This document shows positions 19,859 to 41,834 of a stretch of 64,000 bases of DNA, piece by piece (within the stretch, counting starts at the first letter, position 1; the number at the start of each line of letters is the position of its first letter). A program made the position numbers and the translations under genes. This DNA is from a phage. The stretch is from sequence record PX880100.1; one strand, written 5' to 3'. The notes beneath the pieces were generated by a model, which saw only the letters and a program-made list of their open reading frames with translations, was not told the origin of the DNA and searched no databases.

Positions 19859-20029
19859 ATGAAATCAGTTGTAATTATTGGTGTTAACACTCGCGGTATT
19901 CGTACTACGAAAACTGTTAAAACTTCCAACGTTGCTGAGATCACTACGAACCCTAAAAAGTTTGATTTCGCCAAAGTCTCAGCAGTTATGACAGAACAAT
20001 CTTTTAACCAAGCGTTAGGAATGAAATAA
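19859..20029 (+). CDS. hypothetical small protein (56 aa)
   Basis: Hand-translated; below track cutoff; promoter cassette and GAGAGGAAG upstream; stop overlaps next ATG. Confidence 0.45.
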   Translation: MKSVVIIGVNTRGIRTTKTVKTSNVAEITTNPKKFDFAKVSAVMTEQSFNQALGMK

Positions 20030-20472
20030 TGGAAGAGAATATTTTAGATGTTTTGCGTAGAGCTTTGCAGGATTCTAAGTTTAATGGTTCTGATAAAGAA
20101 GTCGCTAAAAGCTATCAGACCATAATCGGGGATCTTCAGCGTATTGATAAAGATTTCATCACTTCTGAACAATTTGTGTCTTATCTCAAAGCTCAACTAA
20201 AAAGCATTAACCAGATGAAAGCTAAACTTCATGGTCAAGATCTTGATAGTTATAGCTTGCAGTCCGCTCAGTATGAATACATTCTAAATAAGTGGTTGCA
20301 GGAGTATCTGCCTCCTCAGTTATCTGATACTGAGATTCGTAAATACTTTGCAGAATTAGTTAAGCTAAACCCTGGAATTACAAAAGGTATGCTGATGAAA
20401 GCGATTAAGGAAGAATTTCCTGGGCGTTATGATGGTGGTACTGCTGCTCAGATTGCTGGCGAATTTAATTAA
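20029..20472 (+). CDS. GatB/YqeY-domain protein
   Basis: C-terminal EYLPPQLSDTEIR...GMLMKAIKEEFPGRYDGG resembles YqeY family. Confidence 0.55.
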   Translation: MEENILDVLRRALQDSKFNGSDKEVAKSYQTIIGDLQRIDKDFITSEQFVSYLKAQLKSINQMKAKLHGQDLDSYSLQSAQYEYILNKWLQEYLPPQLSDTEIRKYFAELVKLNPGITKGMLMKAIKEEFPGRYDGGTAAQIAGEFN

Positions 20473-20480
20473 AAATTTAT

Positions 20481-20509
20481 TTGCTAAATGCTTATAAATT
20501 CTGTATAAT
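20481..20509 (+). promoter_or_regulatory. N25-like early promoter driving an ORF-free RNA region
   Basis: TTGCTA-17 bp-TATAAT; no ORF for about 0.8 kb downstream. Confidence 0.6.
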
Positions 20510-20732
20510 ATATTCATAAATTAGAGAACAGCGAGCCGATTACGCTGAGTGCAGAATCCCAACCGGAGCGCATTGAATAGAGTCGGTGGGTTAGTTGTAA
20601 AACTAGTACACAGGGGGCGGCAATCCCGGTTAGTGGCTAGAACGTGTAAAATGAGGCGTCTGAAACCTCTCCCCTAAACTCTTCTCTAATTTATAAATAG
20701 TGGGGTGTGGAAATCACTTATGTAGTAACACT

Positions 20733-20804
20733 GCCGTCCTAGTATAATTGGTATTATCAAGCCGTAACTGGTGGAAGATGTAGGTTCGAATCCTACGGTC
20801 GGTA
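20733..20804 (+). ncRNA. tRNA-like element (canonical T-arm, anticodon arm unresolved)
   Basis: GTAGG-TTCGAAT-CCTAC T-arm and 6/7 acceptor pairing; no clean anticodon stem. Confidence 0.3.
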
Positions 20805-21306
20805 AGAACTGGATAACTGATGCTTTTAACGTAAAAGCTTCCGAGGTTAGTTGCGCACTGCCTAAACCACGCGGTAGTTGGTTCCAGACTAACCAACCAG
20901 TCTGCTGAATAGTTTTATTACGATTTAACTATGTCCAGGCTAAAGAAGAACTTTAGAAGGTATTCTAGGATAGTGAAGTTCTTTCTCCACATCGGAGTAG
21001 TTTTTCAAGCTATCCACAAAGTGGGAAATGCTGACATGAGAGATGTCACTAATGGTGCACAATAGCACAGGTAATTCGCGATAATTCCTGTTGAGTAGCA
21101 GCAAAAGGCGGGAAGTCATGACCCCAAGCCTAACCGAGTCCTCAATATACCGCAGGACATAACCACTAAGTCACCCTGACTTAAACTGGAAAATAATAGA
21201 CGTTACTGTATTTTGTCTTGAAATACTTAATGAGTGAGACTTATGACTCTCCCGGTATCGTCTGTATTTTTAAGAGTTTTTACGAGAGTTCTTAAAAATA
21301 CTTAAA

Positions 21307-21381
21307 CGGGGTGTAGTCTAAGGGAGAGGCAGGAGTCTTCTAAATTCCTTTATGCAGGTTCGAATCCTGTCACCTCGGCCA
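21307..21381 (+). tRNA. tRNA-Arg (anticodon UCU)
   Basis: Hand-folded cloverleaf; T-loop TTCGAAT; encoded CCA. Confidence 0.65.
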
Positions 21382-21415
21382 ATTTTATTAACTGTAACTA
21401 AAACAAAGGAAATAT

Positions 21416-22363
21416 ATGTTTAATACTAAAAATATGAAAGAACTGACTTCTGAGCAGAAAGTAATTCGTACTATTAAACGTTGGGGGATTGGTGCTGTAG
21501 TTGGTTTAGCAGGTTTAGTTCTAGCTCTTAACTCCTATACCGTTGTTCAAGACGGTACTGTTAAGACCCAGACTTTCTTGGGTAAAGTTGATCCTAATCC
21601 AGTATTACCTGGTTTCCATGTTGTAAATCCTTTTGCTTCTTTTGATACTTTTAGTACTAAAGATATTGCTCTAAAATTAGATAAACTTCAGGTTCCTAGT
21701 CAGGATAAGTTTAAATCCACTGTTGACCTGACTGTTATGTTGCAGTTTGATGGTTCTAAAGCACCGATTAACCGTATTAATGCAGGTAATCAGGATCAAG
21801 CGTTAGACAAATATGTAACTGAAAAATTACTGTCTACTATTCGTGAGTTTGGTAAGTCTGTACCTAAAGCACAAGATTTATTTGATGCTAAAATTCAGGC
21901 TCAATTGCAAACTGCAATTCAACAGGAAGTTGAAGAGTATGCACGCCCATATGGTTACACAGTTAAGCAGGTGTTCCTTCAGGATATTACTTTGCCACCG
22001 GTAATCATGGAACAGGTACAGAATACCAAAGTTCGTGAAGAACAGGTTAATGCTGCTAAAGCTGAATTAGCTCGTGTTGAACAGGAAGCACAGCAAAAAG
22101 TTAAACAAGCAGAAGCAGATCGTGAAGCTCGCAACAACCAAGCTATTGCTAATGAACGTGACGCAGATGCTAAACTGTACGCAGCTAAGAAAGAAGCTGA
22201 AGCTAACGCCGCATTGCAACGTACCATTACTCCTGAGATGATTCGCTGGAAGCAACTGGAAGTTGAAATGATCCGTGCTCAGAAGTATCAAGGTGGTGTA
22301 CCACAGACGGTAGTTGGTACTGGTTATGATGGCCAAATGATCATGGATATGCGTAATAAATAA
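21416..22363 (+). CDS. SPFH/band-7 domain membrane protein (prohibitin/HflC-like)
   Basis: N-terminal TM helix; SPFH-like core; long coiled-coil C-terminus. Confidence 0.6.
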   Translation: MFNTKNMKELTSEQKVIRTIKRWGIGAVVGLAGLVLALNSYTVVQDGTVKTQTFLGKVDPNPVLPGFHVVNPFASFDTFSTKDIALKLDKLQVPSQDKFKSTVDLTVMLQFDGSKAPINRINAGNQDQALDKYVTEKLLSTIREFGKSVPKAQDLFDAKIQAQLQTAIQQEVEEYARPYGYTVKQVFLQDITLPPVIMEQVQNTKVREEQVNAAKAELARVEQEAQQKVKQAEADREARNNQAIANERDADAKLYAAKKEAEANAALQRTITPEMIRWKQLEVEMIRAQKYQGGVPQTVVGTGYDGQMIMDMRNK

Positions 22364-22387
22364 TACCCGCATGTAACATCTGAAGTA

Positions 22388-23094: not shown

Positions 23095-23172
23095 GGTTCT
23101 CAAGCTCATATGGTATGAGCACCCAGCTCATAACTGGAAGGTACGTAGGTTCGAATCCTCGGGGAGCCACCA
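23095..23172 (+). tRNA. tRNA with CAU anticodon (Met/fMet/Ile2)
   Basis: Acceptor GGTTCTC/GGGAGCC; anticodon loop CTCATAA; weak T-stem. Confidence 0.5.
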
Positions 23173-25901: not shown

Positions 25902-26003
25902 AATTCTGTGTAGAGTTAAGTAAACCGGTAGCCAACCAGCTATCATTGCTGACATCGAATTCAGCCACAGATACCATTTTCATTAATAACTGAGGAAACA
26001 AGC

Positions 26004-26902: not shown

Positions 26903-27295
26903 TAAAATTTCAGTGCAGAACACGGAGCTAGCAATTCGGAAGTGCTGACTCATGATAAGCTGCCTATGTACTTGCAAAGCGGTCGTGTCCAAGACTCGGA
27001 CTCTTGCACTGAAAACAATCAAACATTCTAGCGTGGTTGATGGGGAAACCAGCTTGGCTAGGGCAGAAGCTCGTTCGATTCGAGTGAAAGAATGGTTCTC
27101 GTAAGTCCGCACAAGTGATAATAGGTTCGAGTCCTGTCTAGAATGACACTATAAAGTTTACTTATTATGTAGGTTCCGATAGATCGGCGGGTCTATTCTG
27201 GCATTTAAGAGAGGTCTCGCAAACTTCTTTGTCAGCCGTGGGGTTGGTAGCCTCCAGGTGGCCTACACAATAAGTAAATTTATTAAAAATTCATT

Positions 27296-28405: not shown

Positions 28406-28664
28406 TGCTTAATTTCTTGTTATAATATTTATATAAATTGATGAGGAGAAATCCTCATCATAGTTCACTAAGGTATTAGCTCGACCTAGGACTGGCTGCC
28501 AAAAAGCACGATCCCTACGATTCGGGAGAAGTTCTAGATTGGTCCACTAGATTCAGCGGCAACTGAATAGTGTATTGGGTTTGCGAGATGACGTAGTTCC
28601 TTCCGCTCTAAGCGAAGGTGCTGTAGTTACGCCGAGCTAATAGCCTTAGTAAACTAAAGAATTT

Positions 28665-28743
28665 GGGGAATGGGTCTGCATGGAGTGGACACCTCGCTTG
28701 CACCGAGGACATCAGAACGGTTCGATTCCGTTATTCTCCACCA
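28665..28743 (+). tRNA. tRNA-Ala (anticodon UGC)
   Basis: Anticodon stem CCTCG/CGAGG; T-arm AACGG-TTCGATT-CCGTT; CCA. Confidence 0.65.
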
Positions 28744-29040: not shown

Positions 29041-29135
29041 GGTAGGTCAATCCAATGGCTGGCGTGGGACTCCGACTTGAAATCGGTTGATCGTAGTGAT
29101 ACGGTGTAAGGGTTCGATCCCCTTACCTACCTCCA
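29041..29135 (+). tRNA. tRNA-Ser (anticodon UGA), class II
   Basis: Perfect acceptor GGTAGGT/ACCTACC; T-arm AAGGG-TTCGATC-CCCTT; 20-nt variable arm; CCA. Confidence 0.6.
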
Positions 29136-29501
29136 AATCTTGAAGTATGCCGGAATCGGTAGACGGGGCTGCCTAAAAGGTTTATAGGGAACATCCACTC
29201 CCTGCAACATACCCCATAAAGCGGCTGAGATAAATGGTCTATCTCGTGAAGGTTCAAGTCCTTCTGCTTCTTGATACATCAATGGCTCAAAGTGTAACGG
29301 CGCTATTTGATGCGCTTAGTAAGACTTCCCCGACATGCGTTCGGGAGTAAGCTGCTAAGGCTAGAGTAGAAGAGTTTCTGAGAGCCGCCACAATTGAAGA
29401 TTCGTACTCGTCTTGAGCTGCGTGCAATAGGAGATAACTTGATTAGTATTCTAGAACATGCTAATTGAGGAAGGTTTCGCTAACCCTGCGAGTTTTCAAT
29501 T

Positions 29502-33513: not shown

Positions 33514-33901
33514 TTTAGACCCTAGAATTAAATTTGCAATTACAGAAATCCAAGATCAAATTGATGAGGACTTCACTGTTTGGTCAAGGTCTGGTAATGG
33601 AGAATATTGCCAGCTTTATAGCATGAAAATGGGTATCTCAATTGAGCTTAATATCAACTCTGAAGGCAGAGTAGAAGCCCAACCCATGTTCAGTGTTCCA
33701 GGCTTCTCTGGATTTGTTGCAGGTATAAAATTGTGTCTACCAAATAACCATCTTCATCGAGTTATTTGTCAGCTAGAGACTATTAAGCATTTCTTGCCAG
33801 AAGATAACATTAATGACTACTACCACGAAGTTGTAGCAGCTCATATGATGAAAGAATCTAAACGTCGGAGAGAAGAACGTGAAAAGACTAAACATCAATA
33901 G
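33506..33901 (+). CDS. hypothetical protein
   Basis: Track ORF 33482..33901 trimmed to ATG overlapping upstream stop. Confidence 0.4.
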   Translation: MNNLDPRIKFAITEIQDQIDEDFTVWSRSGNGEYCQLYSMKMGISIELNINSEGRVEAQPMFSVPGFSGFVAGIKLCLPNNHLHRVICQLETIKHFLPEDNINDYYHEVVAAHMMKESKRRREEREKTKHQ

Positions 33902-40669: not shown

Positions 40670-41535
40670 TTATGAAAAAAGAATTTAATGTACATAAAAC
40701 TCTAGTAGTGCCAGATGACGCCAACTTGTTTTTCGTCGGTGATATTCATGGATGCAATGATTTGCTAGAAGATGCACTGAAATTAGCTGGGTATAATAGC
40801 AAAAAAGATTGCTTAGTATGTGTTGGTGACTTAATTGACCGAGGCACACAAAACCTACAAGTTTTAGCCAAATTCCTGTATAATCCACATTTTGTCAGTG
40901 TCCGTGGTAATCACGACCAGTTTATGATTGCAGGAGATTGGGCTAATTGGATGTATAACGGTGGTATATGGGCTATGGAAGAGCTGGATGCAGACACCAT
41001 TAAAAATATCGCCGAAGATATGGCTGAAAAAATGCCAGTATTCCTAACTGTTAGACATCGTGGTAAGAAGTATGGTGTTGTTCATGGTGGTGTACCTTTT
41101 ACATACAAAGAATGCGGTAATGAGGTAGAAACCCCAGTATGGGATAATCTTATTGCACAAGTAGAAGCAGCTAAGGAAGACCCACATGACCATCCTGGAT
41201 ACCATATTGAACCATATTTATGGGATCGAGATGTAATCCAAGAAATAGGCTTCTACTTGTCCAAAAACGGTGAGGAACATCCGTATTTTCAGCGTTATGC
41301 AGGATTTAAAGAAAAATACATGGTAGAAGTGCCCGAAGTTAAAGGGGTAGATTTCGTGTTTCATGGACATACTGGAGTACCTTACCCACTTCTTTATAAA
41401 AACCGTGTTTACCTTGATACTGGCGGTGTTTTCAACGGGCAGTTGACGGTTGCGCAAGTTAACGATGAAACTGGCAAAATCACCACATTTACCACAGACA
41501 AAAATAATAGCTGCGGTGTACAGAGGATTCTTTAA
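40660..41535 (+). CDS. Ser/Thr protein phosphatase (calcineurin-like metallophosphatase)
   Basis: GDIHG, GDLIDRG and GNHD metallophosphatase motifs. Confidence 0.75.
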   Translation: MGIIMKKEFNVHKTLVVPDDANLFFVGDIHGCNDLLEDALKLAGYNSKKDCLVCVGDLIDRGTQNLQVLAKFLYNPHFVSVRGNHDQFMIAGDWANWMYNGGIWAMEELDADTIKNIAEDMAEKMPVFLTVRHRGKKYGVVHGGVPFTYKECGNEVETPVWDNLIAQVEAAKEDPHDHPGYHIEPYLWDRDVIQEIGFYLSKNGEEHPYFQRYAGFKEKYMVEVPEVKGVDFVFHGHTGVPYPLLYKNRVYLDTGGVFNGQLTVAQVNDETGKITTFTTDKNNSCGVQRIL

Positions 41536-41834
41536 TGAATGATAGAATGAAAGAGGTACGAGAAGAATTACAAGCCATGCATATTGATGCCCTTCGTTGG
41601 AGGGCATTAGTTAATGCTTTCGTCAAAGGAGATACCGGAGTAATATATTCTGGAATAGCAGTCAATTTTTGTTTTAATTCTCCTGCTGAAATAGAGATAG
41701 AGACAAGGCTTACTACCTATCTTAATGAGGTAGACCTTAAGGAAGGAGAGACTCCTGAGGAGTTTAAAACCAAAGTGTTAACCTCTTGGGTTGATAGTTT
41801 AATACAGAATAAGGAAAAGAGTAATGAAAGTTAA
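41535..41834 (+). CDS. hypothetical protein
   Basis: ORF track. Confidence 0.4.
   Translation: MNDRMKEVREELQAMHIDALRWRALVNAFVKGDTGVIYSGIAVNFCFNSPAEIEIETRLTTYLNEVDLKEGETPEEFKTKVLTSWVDSLIQNKEKSNES

Follow-up and report, generated by a model that had tools for sequence, protein, structure and literature searches.

The 64,000-nucleotide stretch of phage DNA analyzed here (sequence record PX880100.1; the whole stretch is referred to as the window) belongs to a T5-like phage, and positions 20516-21306 of its plus strand are likely to be the ortholog of T5 rnaX, i.e. one large non-coding RNA (ncRNA) gene of ~790 nt at the head of the tRNA island. The gene, termed RNAX below, is already known as an annotation; what the present analysis adds is a single multi-domain structure supported by covariation. 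The original prediction had described a promoter-driven non-coding region encoding non-tRNA RNA of unknown function, in agreement with the rnaX annotation of phages T5 and DT57C. It had also suggested several small RNAs, in place of which annotation and comparative structure point to one multi-domain transcript of ~0.8 kb.

20516-21306, plus strand: RNAX ortholog, 791 nt, from its inferred start to the base before tRNA-Arg (T5 alignment, T5 and DT57C annotation, covariation)

Identity with T5 rnaX

In the T5 RefSeq record (NC_005859), rnaX/RNAX (T5s08) is a misc_RNA feature of 719 nt that starts inside promoter P16-17 and whose last base directly precedes tRNA-Arg. The same feature is present in the T5 fragment AY734508 and in the DT57C RefSeq record (ACQ32_gs001, 636 nt), and the two RefSeq records, T5 and DT57C, both carry the note 'stable RNA with unknown functions'; the T5 annotation gives no structure, family or function. 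Positions 8-517 of T5 rnaX align with 20677-21191 of the window at 91.3% identity, and positions 582-719 with 21169-21306 at 98.6%. The two loci share strand, ends and the order YqeY-like gene, P16-17, RNA, tRNA-Arg, SPFH gene. They differ in that the window copy has an extra 5' module of 150 nt (20528-20676), missing in T5, whereas in T5 the AGUCACCUUGAC hairpin is duplicated by an insert of ~88 nt. Judged from sequence and synteny, the RNAX region of the window and T5 rnaX are the same gene.

A megablast search with 20400-21400 matched 444 phage records at identities of up to 99.7%, almost all of them from Tequintavirus or Epseptimavirus; by blastn or megablast, the RNAX region is found in 444 to 538 phage records. 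A second T5 record (AY587007) labels the tRNA-like piece of the region alone, calling it a pseudo-tRNA. Our literature search found no paper on T5 RNAX and no published structure. The T5 st0 deletion, with annotated ends at 33667 and 41891, removes rnaX (40848-41566), so RNAX is dispensable on laboratory Escherichia coli.

Compensatory substitutions on the plus strand

Homology within divergent relatives was established with nhmmer, and structures were drawn manually or by RNAalifold. Alignment A1 comprises 27 distinct copies of window 20699-20873, scored against a hand-drawn structure of 37 pairs, and alignment A3 comprises 19 Markadamsvirinae copies of window 21004-21301, scored against an RNAalifold structure of 55 pairs. 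In A1, 85.9% of the cells are paired, as against 30-46% in controls slid by 1-3 columns; 15 pairs have changes on both sides (2-7 in the slid controls) and the covariation score is 0.217 (at most 0.067 in the controls). Five measures were compared with 500 column shuffles: on four of them no shuffle attained the real value, and on the fifth, the count of further pair types, 6 shuffles did. The corresponding values for A3 are 96.4% of cells paired (35-48% when slid), 19 pairs changed on both sides (3-7) and a covariation score of 0.168 (at most 0.049), which none of 500 shuffles reached. Cells with G·U or U·G stand to those with A·C or C·A as 115:4 and 76:8 in the two structures. Because G·U far outnumbers A·C, the object of selection would be a plus-strand RNA rather than a DNA element or a minus-strand RNA. 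As far as comparative sequence analysis can tell, compensatory substitutions on the plus strand preserve the RNAX helices, and the region encodes a single multi-domain structured RNA.

The same ratios bear on the proposal that the region acts as DNA, for example as a replication origin, a protein-binding array or a nick site whose inverted repeats function in the duplex. Inverted repeats are indeed numerous, GTCATGAC and AGTCA-N3-TGACT are palindromic, and T5 has sequence-specific nicks nearby, with nick 3 located downstream of the SPFH gene. However, tolerance of G·U together with intolerance of A·C is expected only for plus-strand RNA, a cloverleaf and a pseudoknot (both described below) would be meaningless in duplex DNA, and the annotated nick lies outside the region. 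We regard a DNA-level element as highly improbable.

The structured RNA falls outside the known families that we searched. Rfam gave no non-tRNA family at the gathering threshold in the whole window and no credible one at E ≤ 10 in the region and three divergent relatives; weak matches to Hrs13, microRNA and small nucleolar RNA models were rejected, as they scored far below their gathering thresholds and were not reproducible.

The 5' module and the leader

20516-20693, plus strand: optional 5' module closed by helix P1 (indel in relatives; P1 in the minimum free energy (MFE) fold)
20529-20547, plus strand: hairpin Pa, CAGCG, loop AGCCGAUUA, CGCUG (covarying; Pa switches to CAGCA/UGCUG)
20699-20732, plus strand: conserved 'leader' motif AGUGGGGUGUGGAAAUCACUUAUGUAGUAACACU (invariant columns in A1)

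Helix P1 pairs 20516-20528 with 20681-20693 (13 bp) and spans 165 nt. The interior of the module, 20528-20676, is missing in T5, DT57C and others, where P1 is kept as a small hairpin. P1 has compensatory variants, namely AGATG/CATCT in relative L004 and TTAAAGAGAA/TTCTCTTAA in Enterobacter phage KKP_3711. Within the module, the loop of Pa (20535-20539, GCCGA) forms a pseudoknot with 20583-20587 (UCGGU). The pseudoknot switches in concert with Pa: its pairing is GCCGA/UCGGU in T5-like and Sugarland phages, KKP_3711 and phiR2-01, but switches to GCAGA/UCUGU in DU_PP_V, My1 and Stubb and to GCAUA/UAUGU in PR1; the two strands, 34-63 nt apart, are fully complementary in 10 of 10 lineages. The leader that follows is the most conserved single-stranded or irregular segment in terms of sequence, and nhmmer recovers it in Stubb (E 4.6e-6) and PR1 (E 2.5e-5).

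The tRNA-like domain

20733-20804, plus strand: tRNA-like domain (Rfam tRNA model, 35.5 bits; pair counts in A1)

The Rfam tRNA model (RF00005) matches this domain above its gathering score of 29 bits, with an E value of 1.6e-5 in a 1-kb search, and treats the anticodon arm as an 18-nt local insertion. At E ≤ 10, no second tRNA-like fragment was detected in the Rfam search, so that a single element takes the place of the several fragments that had been proposed. ARAGORN called no tRNA or tmRNA in 20510-21306, and its calls in relatives are inconsistent (SeC(tca) in S147; Ser(act) in T5 and S124); ARAGORN and Rfam together do not resolve the whole region into ordinary tRNA genes.

The cloverleaf comprises an acceptor stem (20733-20739 with 20797-20803), a D arm with GG (~20742-20758) and a T arm (20780-20796, GUAGG-UUCGAAU-CCUAC). 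The T arm is canonical, as had been noted from the sequence, whereas the accompanying claim that no anticodon arm can fold does not hold: the 'anticodon' position (~20761-20772) has a covarying stem of 3-4 bp with a 6-nt loop, GUAACU. In A1, 82.5% of the cells are paired in the acceptor stem, 79.6% in the D stem and 98.5% in the T stem, and changes on both sides affect 4 of 7 acceptor pairs, 2 of 4 D pairs, 2 of 3 pairs of the anticodon-like stem and 2 of 5 T pairs. The T stem occurs as GUAGG/CCUAC, GUGGG/CCCAC or GCAGG/CCUGC, and the D stem as GUAU/(A/U)UAU in most copies and AAGU/ACUU in Sugarland-type phages. The acceptor stem changes even among near-identical Tequintaviruses, U5·U68 becoming A-U in T5 and U-A in relative L008, and C6-G67 becoming U-A in relative L012. 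The acceptor, D and T stems are thus kept by compensatory changes, which speaks against the 'degenerate tRNAs' suggested earlier.

The anticodon arm itself is freely exchanged. Its stem is GCC/GGU in the window versus GGC/GCC in Kp127 and KKP_3711; S147 has the same geometry with another loop, and the hairpins of DU_PP_V (a 5-bp stem with a 5-nt loop), IME260 (a long GGGGA-GCCA-UCCCC hairpin, also found in Sugarland phages), KFSSM and phiR2-01 are unrelated. No CCA is encoded: the 3' strand of the acceptor is followed by A-AGAAC, which includes a conserved AAGA (AAAGAG in relatives), while the adjacent tRNA-Arg encodes GCCA. Like a canonical tRNA (RF00005), the element has an acceptor stem, a D arm containing GG and a T arm containing UUCGAAU, all of which covary. 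Unlike a canonical tRNA, it lacks both an encoded CCA and a 5-bp anticodon stem carrying a 7-nt loop with a conserved anticodon, shows conserved mismatches (U5·U68 and G1·U/A72), and forms part of a larger RNA. Other tRNA mimics are viral tRNA-like structures and tmRNA; the element differs from tmRNA in being contiguous and internal rather than assembled from the 5' and 3' ends, and neither ARAGORN nor Rfam calls a tmRNA. With two defining features of tRNA absent and the acceptor, T arm and D-T elbow kept, the domain is, judged on these features, a module and not a decoder. It has been annotated as pseudo-tRNA or tRNA-OTHER in T5 (AY587007), VSe12 and Stokescottia, and as tRNA-Sec or tRNA-Ser in other genomes; the 'tRNA-OTHER', 'tRNA-Sec' and 'tRNA-Ser(act)' calls in T5-like genomes would accordingly refer to a domain of RNAX and not to a decoding tRNA.

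A tRNA-like domain in the middle of a transcript raises the question of cleavage. RNase P and 3' processing enzymes might cut there to release several stable RNAs, each acting alone: a 5' module of ~215 nt, a tRNA-like RNA of 72 nt and a 3' RNA of ~500 nt, much as the original prediction had imagined. Selection on an acceptor stem, T arm and elbow of a kind that RNase P could recognize fits this idea, as does the finding that no covarying helix bridges the domain, P1, GUGG/CCAC and AGACG/CGUCU (the latter two described below) each lying on one side of it. Modules are moreover gained and lost independently, and the T5 island encodes a further seven small 'stable RNAs' (73-172 nt), of which three have been labeled tRNA-like. 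On the other hand, the curators of T5 and DT57C annotated one RNA in each genome, of 719 and 636 nt; the acceptor stem has the U5·U68 and G1·U/A72 irregularities and no encoded CCA, unlike the adjacent tRNA-Arg; and in STG2, SH9, Stubb and PR1 a non-tRNA hairpin occupies the same position while the flanking motifs remain contiguous. We consider separate fragments possible but rather unlikely, and favor the single multi-domain RNA.

The middle region, the 3' core and the terminal hairpin

20822-20838, plus strand: hairpin B2, GCUUUUA-ACG-UAAAAGC (A1 helix 7)
20846-20862, plus strand: hairpin B3 (GUUAG/CUGCC), weak in the window, directly 5' of the conserved UAAACCACG (A1 helix 8)
20877-20904, plus strand: conserved hairpin GUUGGUU-CCAGACU-AACCAAC, pairing 20877-20883 with 20891-20897, and the overlapping, non-conserved CAGACU/AGUCUG (20885-20904)
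20905-21019, plus strand: variable middle region with local hairpins, e.g. UAGAA-GGUA-UUCUA and GGAUAG...CUAUCC (read from the alignment)
21021-21182, plus strand: 3' core, closed by GUGG (21021-21024) with CCAC (21163-21166), spanning 145 nt (RNAalifold, pair counts)
21113-21122, plus strand: invariant hairpin loop with the self-complementary octamer GUCAUGAC (invariant columns in A3; AGUCAUGAC at 21114-21122)
21198-21263, plus strand: multi-helix junction closed by AGACG (21198-21202) with CGUCU (21259-21263) (MFE fold; alignments A2 and A3)
21264-21301, plus strand: terminal hairpin of 17 bp with a UACG tetraloop, ending 5 nt before tRNA-Arg (A3 helix 9)

Three pairs of B2 are changed on both sides, and its column pair 145/153 is UA in 14 copies, CG in 8 and AU in 5. 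At the position of B3, RNAs of the Sugarland, KFSSM and DU_PP_V types have a larger branched insert. The hairpin at 20877-20897 has a compensatory variant, GUUGAUU/AAUCAAC, in KKP_3711 and a wobble variant, GUUGGUU/AAUCAAC, in DT57C. The inverted repeat CAGACT-AACCAACC-AGTCTG that had been placed near 20870 is present, but at 20885-20904. As a conserved element, CAGACU/AGUCUG was rejected: its complementarity is lost in S147, and the conserved hairpin is the overlapping GUUGGUU/AACCAAC. In the middle region, the Kp127 counterpart of one local hairpin, UAGGC-GGUA-GCCUA, has two compensatory pairs, a reading from the alignment rather than from scored pair counts.

The 3' core contains helix Z1 (21032-21037 with 21043-21048), the hairpin bearing the palindromic loop (21106-21131) and helix Z6 (21138-21143 with 21152-21158); hairpin Z7 (AAGUCA-CCC-UGACUU, 21168-21182) lies just outside the closing helix GUGG/CCAC. 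Among the helices of A3, numbers 2, 3, 5, 6 and 7 have 2-5 pairs each that are changed on both sides. The palindromic loop sits on a covarying stem, AGGC-GGG/CCC-GCCU (A3 helix 6, three pairs changed on both sides). It occurs once in the window and is also found in Sugarland-type phages, DU_PP_V, phiR2-01 and Stubb. The half-sites GUCA and UGAC occur both in the loop AGUCAUGAC and in the Z7 hairpin. Conceivably, the loop invades the Z7 hairpin to form another pairing, or one dimeric binder recognizes the two. T5 has a second copy of the Z7-type hairpin.

The junction at 21198-21263 encloses two inner hairpins and a conserved CUUAAU. The second inner hairpin is GAGU/ACUC in the window, GGG/CCC in S147 and GGGGA/UCCCC in IME260; the junction was read by eye and not scored by pair counts, as the alignment between groups is unreliable there. 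In the terminal hairpin, 100% of the cells are paired and three pairs are changed on both sides, KKP_3711 changing four pairs in a compensatory manner. It is the only part that blastn still matches in DU_PP_V (92.9% over 42 nt). Because no U-tract follows it, we do not consider it a terminator.

Coding status

The longest open reading frames (ORFs) within 20510-21306 encode 60, 59, 45, 44 and 42 aa. In order to assess coding, relatives were mapped onto each ORF of the window and mismatches were tallied by codon position. No excess of third-position mismatches was found in these ORFs; the 60-aa ORF on the minus strand, for example, has 15/12/6 mismatches at the three positions against S147 and 13/10/10 against KKP_3711. 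Relatives T5, S124, Kp127 and KKP_3711 have indels not divisible by three and additional in-frame stops in the ORFs of the window, and the 42-aa ORF lies inside the 150-nt block that T5 and several others lack.

The possibility that the region encodes small proteins nevertheless deserves mention, as ORFs of all five lengths are annotated as coding sequences (CDSs) for hypothetical proteins in many GenBank records, including those of Stokescottia, PMBT27, Roth49 and K7_rec12. Set against this are the mismatch pattern, the frameshifting indels and extra stops, the location of one ORF in a module that is missing in T5, and the overlap of ORFs on both strands with covarying RNA helices. The coding reading was rejected on the basis of substitution pattern, indels and stops, and we judge its probability to be very low; the earlier statement that no credible ORF exists stands, the ORFs being at most 60 aa and none conserved as coding. 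The hypothetical-protein CDSs in IrmaTschudi, Roth49, K7_rec12, Stokescottia and PMBT27 are probably over-predictions, and many 'hypothetical protein' calls in GenBank across the RNAX interval are probably spurious. Annotated CDSs overlap RNAX domains detected by nhmmer in IrmaTschudi (locus L050, 2085-2581), Roth49 and K7_rec12 (L094 and L095, 2392-2832), Stokescottia (L001, 1650-1778 and 2041-2220) and PMBT27 (L093, 1016-1660).

Distribution among phages

We define the RNAX unit by its promoter, its conserved motifs, an ORF-free length of 0.65-1.3 kb and its location 5' of tRNA-Arg. Among the relatives examined, this architecture was present in at least seven genera of Demerecviridae: Tequintavirus, Epseptimavirus, Sugarlandvirus, Hongcheonvirus, Myunavirus, Novosibvirus and Priunavirus. 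The Epseptimavirus carriers include S147, S124, KFSSM, mar003J3, SH9, STG2 and phiR2-01. The unit is also present in Enterobacter phage KKP_3711, in Sugarlandvirus (~1.29 kb), in the Pectobacterium phages DU_PP_V and My1 (Mccorquodalevirinae), in Proteus phage Stubb (Novosibvirus) and in Providencia phage PR1 (Priunavirus). In IrmaTschudi, Roth49 and K7_rec12, nhmmer found the 3' domain beneath annotated ORFs. In several Epseptimaviruses, the boundaries between modules harbor inserted ORFs, among them homing-endonuclease genes, and the RNA blocks are left intact.

In Stubb (locus L091, 3760-4511) and PR1 (L090, 3770-4467), the motifs known from T5 are apparently reordered, the GUCAUGAC hairpin lying 5' of the leader, and the order may reflect domain shuffling or permutation. 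At the cloverleaf position, these two phages have a hairpin whose loop, GAGAGUGUUUACGGGAG, is similar to the distal part (stem and loop) of the terminal hairpin in T5. Stubb has, in addition, a separate upstream element resembling an acceptor and T arm, UUAUCUG...CUGGGUUCAACUCCCAG...CAGAUAA. In phiR2-01 (L092, ~1740-2260), ~0.5 kb between the terminal hairpin and tRNA-Arg carries no annotation, has an apparent ORF start ATGAGGGATAACTC and is possibly an inserted gene.

Pattern scans with the terminal hairpin and the leader, which demand exact matches and would let divergent members escape, found only Demerecviridae isolates in IMG/VR. The same kind of scan gave four T5- or Sugarland-like contigs and two apparent chance matches in metagenomes, and four matches in GTDB genomes, all in coding-like sequence with no other RNAX motif and close to the number expected by chance. 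Synteny of the SPFH gene led to T4-like and FelixO1-like phages, in which no RNAX homology was found. Records labeled 'Campylobacter phage C13' and 'Listeria phage LM 4-14-1' (H59, H65 and H99) contain a T5-like region at 96-98% identity; their host labels are probably wrong or the assemblies contaminated.

This breadth matters for the view that the region is evolutionary debris, i.e. a decayed tRNA gene with remnants of homing endonucleases that serves as a functionless long leader of tRNA-Arg. T5-like islands are mosaic with HNH genes, and an HNH ORF lies within the unit in S147, KFSSM, mar003J3 and IrmaTschudi; the pseudo-tRNA label in AY587007, the dispensability of the region in T5 st0 and a non-significant MFE z-score would also suit debris. 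Against it stand compensatory changes in at least 34 modeled pairs, the strong asymmetry of G·U over A·C, the covarying pseudoknot, an architecture kept in seven genera, and the invariance of single-stranded motifs and a hairpin loop between subfamilies that share hardly any other sequence recognizable by blastn. Debris is therefore disfavored, and we think it very unlikely.

Promoter and transcription unit

20481-20509, plus strand: early sigma-70 promoter, with a -35 box TTGCTA (20481-20486) and a -10 box TATAAT (20504-20509) (promoter scan, conservation, T5 annotation)
21307-21381, plus strand: tRNA-Arg(UCU), whose 5' end sets the annotated 3' end of RNAX (ARAGORN; Rfam, 49.3 bits; T5 annotation)

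The plus strand of the window has a block of 24 tRNA genes at 21.3-31.4 kb (ARAGORN and Rfam), and RNAX forms its upstream edge, between an ORF of 147 aa (20029-20472) and tRNA-Arg(UCU). The consensus early promoter that had been proposed at 20481-20509 was recovered: TTGCTA-17-TATAAT matches 10 of 12 consensus positions in the promoter scan, the box is retained in every relative read, and T5 annotation names it 'promoter P16-17'. As a class, promoter-like sites are not enriched in the region (6 found versus 7.5 expected), so support for this promoter comes from conservation and the T5 annotation and not from the scan. The start is predicted at A20516, 7 nt past the -10 box, from this spacing and from the initial transcribed sequence 'TTCATAAATT', which we take to be typical of T5 early promoters. 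The segment 20473-20528, which includes the -35 and -10 boxes, the start ATAAATTAGAGA and thus roughly the first 50 nt, is repeated elsewhere in T5-like genomes at 80-97% identity, and these repeats are labeled 'repeat c' in AY587007. Because the segment recurs at other promoters, the 5' strand of P1 would be part of a generic initial transcribed sequence of T5 early promoters.

At the other end, ARAGORN places tRNA-Arg(tct) where the region had been said to stop. The terminator scan gave its first plus-strand call only at 22387, past the SPFH gene, so RNAX, tRNA-Arg and the SPFH-protein mRNA are probably made as one early transcript.

Such an arrangement could also be that of a cis-acting 5' leader, which would regulate or process the operon of tRNA-Arg and the SPFH/band-7 gene as a tRNA sensor, an RNase entry site or a stability element. 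RNAX always lies 5' of tRNA-Arg, belongs to the same transcription unit with no terminator between, and ends in a hairpin that abuts the tRNA. Yet ORFs or coding sequence are inserted between this hairpin and tRNA-Arg in S147, KFSSM, KKP_3711, Kp127, IME260, PR1 and phiR2-01 while the RNA is unchanged, its length (0.65-1.3 kb) and complexity far exceed those of known leaders, and the Rfam searches returned no riboswitch, T-box or leader family. A role as leader seems unlikely to us, and an RNA acting in its own right remains the preferred interpretation.

The gene at 20029-20472, upstream of RNAX, is variously labeled 'tRNA amidotransferase', 'recombination related exonuclease' and 'YqeY-like'. 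Its 147-aa product scores 25.4 bits (E 1.7e-5) against Pfam YqeY, a weak match that falls short of the cutoff of 27 bits. A homolog lies 5' of RNAX in Markadamsvirinae, DU_PP_V, Stubb and PR1; Sugarlandvirus has none at this position. The tail domain of GatB, which is related to YqeY, contacts tRNA, and the YqeY-like protein is for this reason a candidate partner of the tRNA-like domain.

Comparison with GOLLD and ROOL and a possible mode of action

GOLLD and ROOL are RNAs of phages and prophages encoded near tRNA islands that assemble as RNA only, via kissing loops (PMC5737381; PMC12286853). GOLLD exceeds 800 nt, is conserved in its 3' and variable in its 5' region, sometimes contains tRNAs in a linker, and is non-essential (PMC12286853; PMC5737381). 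ROOL measures ~580 nt, has many junctions and pseudoknots, is very abundant and non-essential, and forms an RNA-only nanocage (PMC5737381; PMC12286853). Like both, RNAX is phage-borne, located by a tRNA island, longer than 500 nt and multi-junction, with a covarying pseudoknot, a resemblance that does not amount to proof of homology. With GOLLD (RF01998), it further shares the size class, the phage and tRNA-island setting, an embedded tRNA-like element, modular and variable parts and, on the side of RNAX, a conserved palindromic loop; it differs in being carried by phages of Enterobacterales, and its oligomerization is a candidate property only. We saw no motifs in common between ROOL and RNAX. 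In sum, RNAX resembles GOLLD and ROOL in lifestyle and is not a detectable member of either.

By analogy with these RNAs, we propose tentatively that RNAX is a self-folding, possibly self-associating scaffold that presents a tRNA mimic, a speculation to which we assign a rather low probability. Apart from this speculation, RNase P would be expected to cut at the 5' end of tRNA-Arg and create the 3' end of RNAX, where the T5 annotation places it. The terminal hairpin, 5 nt upstream, would block 3' exonucleases, and the presumed stability of RNAX could be explained because the hairpin would shield this RNase P-made end. The proposed scaffold would fold by itself and might self-associate via the invariant palindromic loop GUCAUGAC. 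It would then show a non-chargeable tRNA mimic to tRNA-binding factors of host or phage; possible targets are processing or modification enzymes, tRNA-targeting defense nucleases and the neighboring, weakly YqeY-like protein. RNAX would in this way serve as an accessory RNA of the tRNA island, working like GOLLD and ROOL, useful in natural hosts and dispensable in laboratory E. coli. A broader view, which we hold to be doubtful, is that RNAX represents a third, unrelated class of large 'ornate' tRNA-island phage RNAs, specific to Demerecviridae, that self-assemble and may act as a tRNA-mimic decoy or scaffold in the contest between phage and host over tRNAs.

Several points weigh against one functional RNA or against the proposed mode of action. 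The single-sequence folding energy is no better than that of shuffles (z = -1.0 for the plus and -0.9 for the minus strand). The covariation comes from ~8-10 independent lineages, phylogeny does not enter into the shuffle control, the A3 structure was scored on the alignment from which it was derived, and helices GUGG/CCAC and Z7 never vary, so that covariation neither backs nor contradicts them. Both the 5' module and the tRNA-like cloverleaf can be replaced in natural phages: the former is missing in T5, and in STG2, SH9, Stubb and PR1 the entire cloverleaf is a plain stem-loop on the same base helix. The palindrome is missing in PR1. The tRNA-like domain could be a substrate of RNase P or RNase Z, and maturation would then yield fragments rather than a 0.8-kb RNA. 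'Stable RNA' is a database note for which we found no primary experimental paper dealing with RNAX of T5, and the covariance models of GOLLD and ROOL gave no match at E ≤ 10 (20400-21420 and the relatives L045, L047 and L052). Self-association, decoy activity and a protein partner are predictions by analogy and speculative.

Large structured ncRNAs are rare in bacteria and phages, and GOLLD and ROOL have cryo-electron microscopy structures but neither an assigned function nor a convenient genetic system. RNAX, with similar size and setting and no Rfam family, occurs in one of the best-studied E. coli phages. The covarying helices, the pseudoknot, the anticodon-less tRNA mimic, the invariant palindromic loop and the protective terminal hairpin offer experimental handles. 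If the proposal is true, T5, an E. coli phage amenable to genetics for which the st0 deletion already exists, would be the first practical experimental system for the function of such RNAs.

Other stable RNAs and tRNA calls in the island

The T5 RefSeq record lists eight 'stable RNAs' in the tRNA island, of which RNAX is the largest by far. The seven others (RNAI, RNAIII, RNAIV, RNA1, RNA2, RNA2H and RNA3; 73-172 nt, three called tRNA-like, as mentioned above) are, like RNAX, non-tRNA stable RNAs co-transcribed with phage tRNAs; RNAX differs from them in being 4-10 times larger and in having several domains. Similar non-tRNA stable RNAs are the species 1 and 2 RNAs (rnaC and rnaD) of the T4 tRNA cluster. 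In the whole window, no Rfam family was found at the gathering threshold for any of the seven orthologs, which are 85-100% identical to T5 and occupy gaps without ORFs in the tRNA island: RNA3 at 25904-25976, RNA2 at 27024-27148, RNAIV at 27167-27269, RNA2H at 28474-28645, RNA1 at 29139-29283, RNAI at 29284-29390 and RNAIII at 29395-29500.

ARAGORN and Rfam disagree on three tRNAs of the island. At the gathering threshold, Rfam missed Ala at 28665 and Ser-tga at 29041, both of which ARAGORN called. Conversely, the tRNA at 23095-23172 was missed by ARAGORN and found by Rfam (38.2 bits), and it is 100% identical to T5 tRNA-Ile2(CAU), T5t23.

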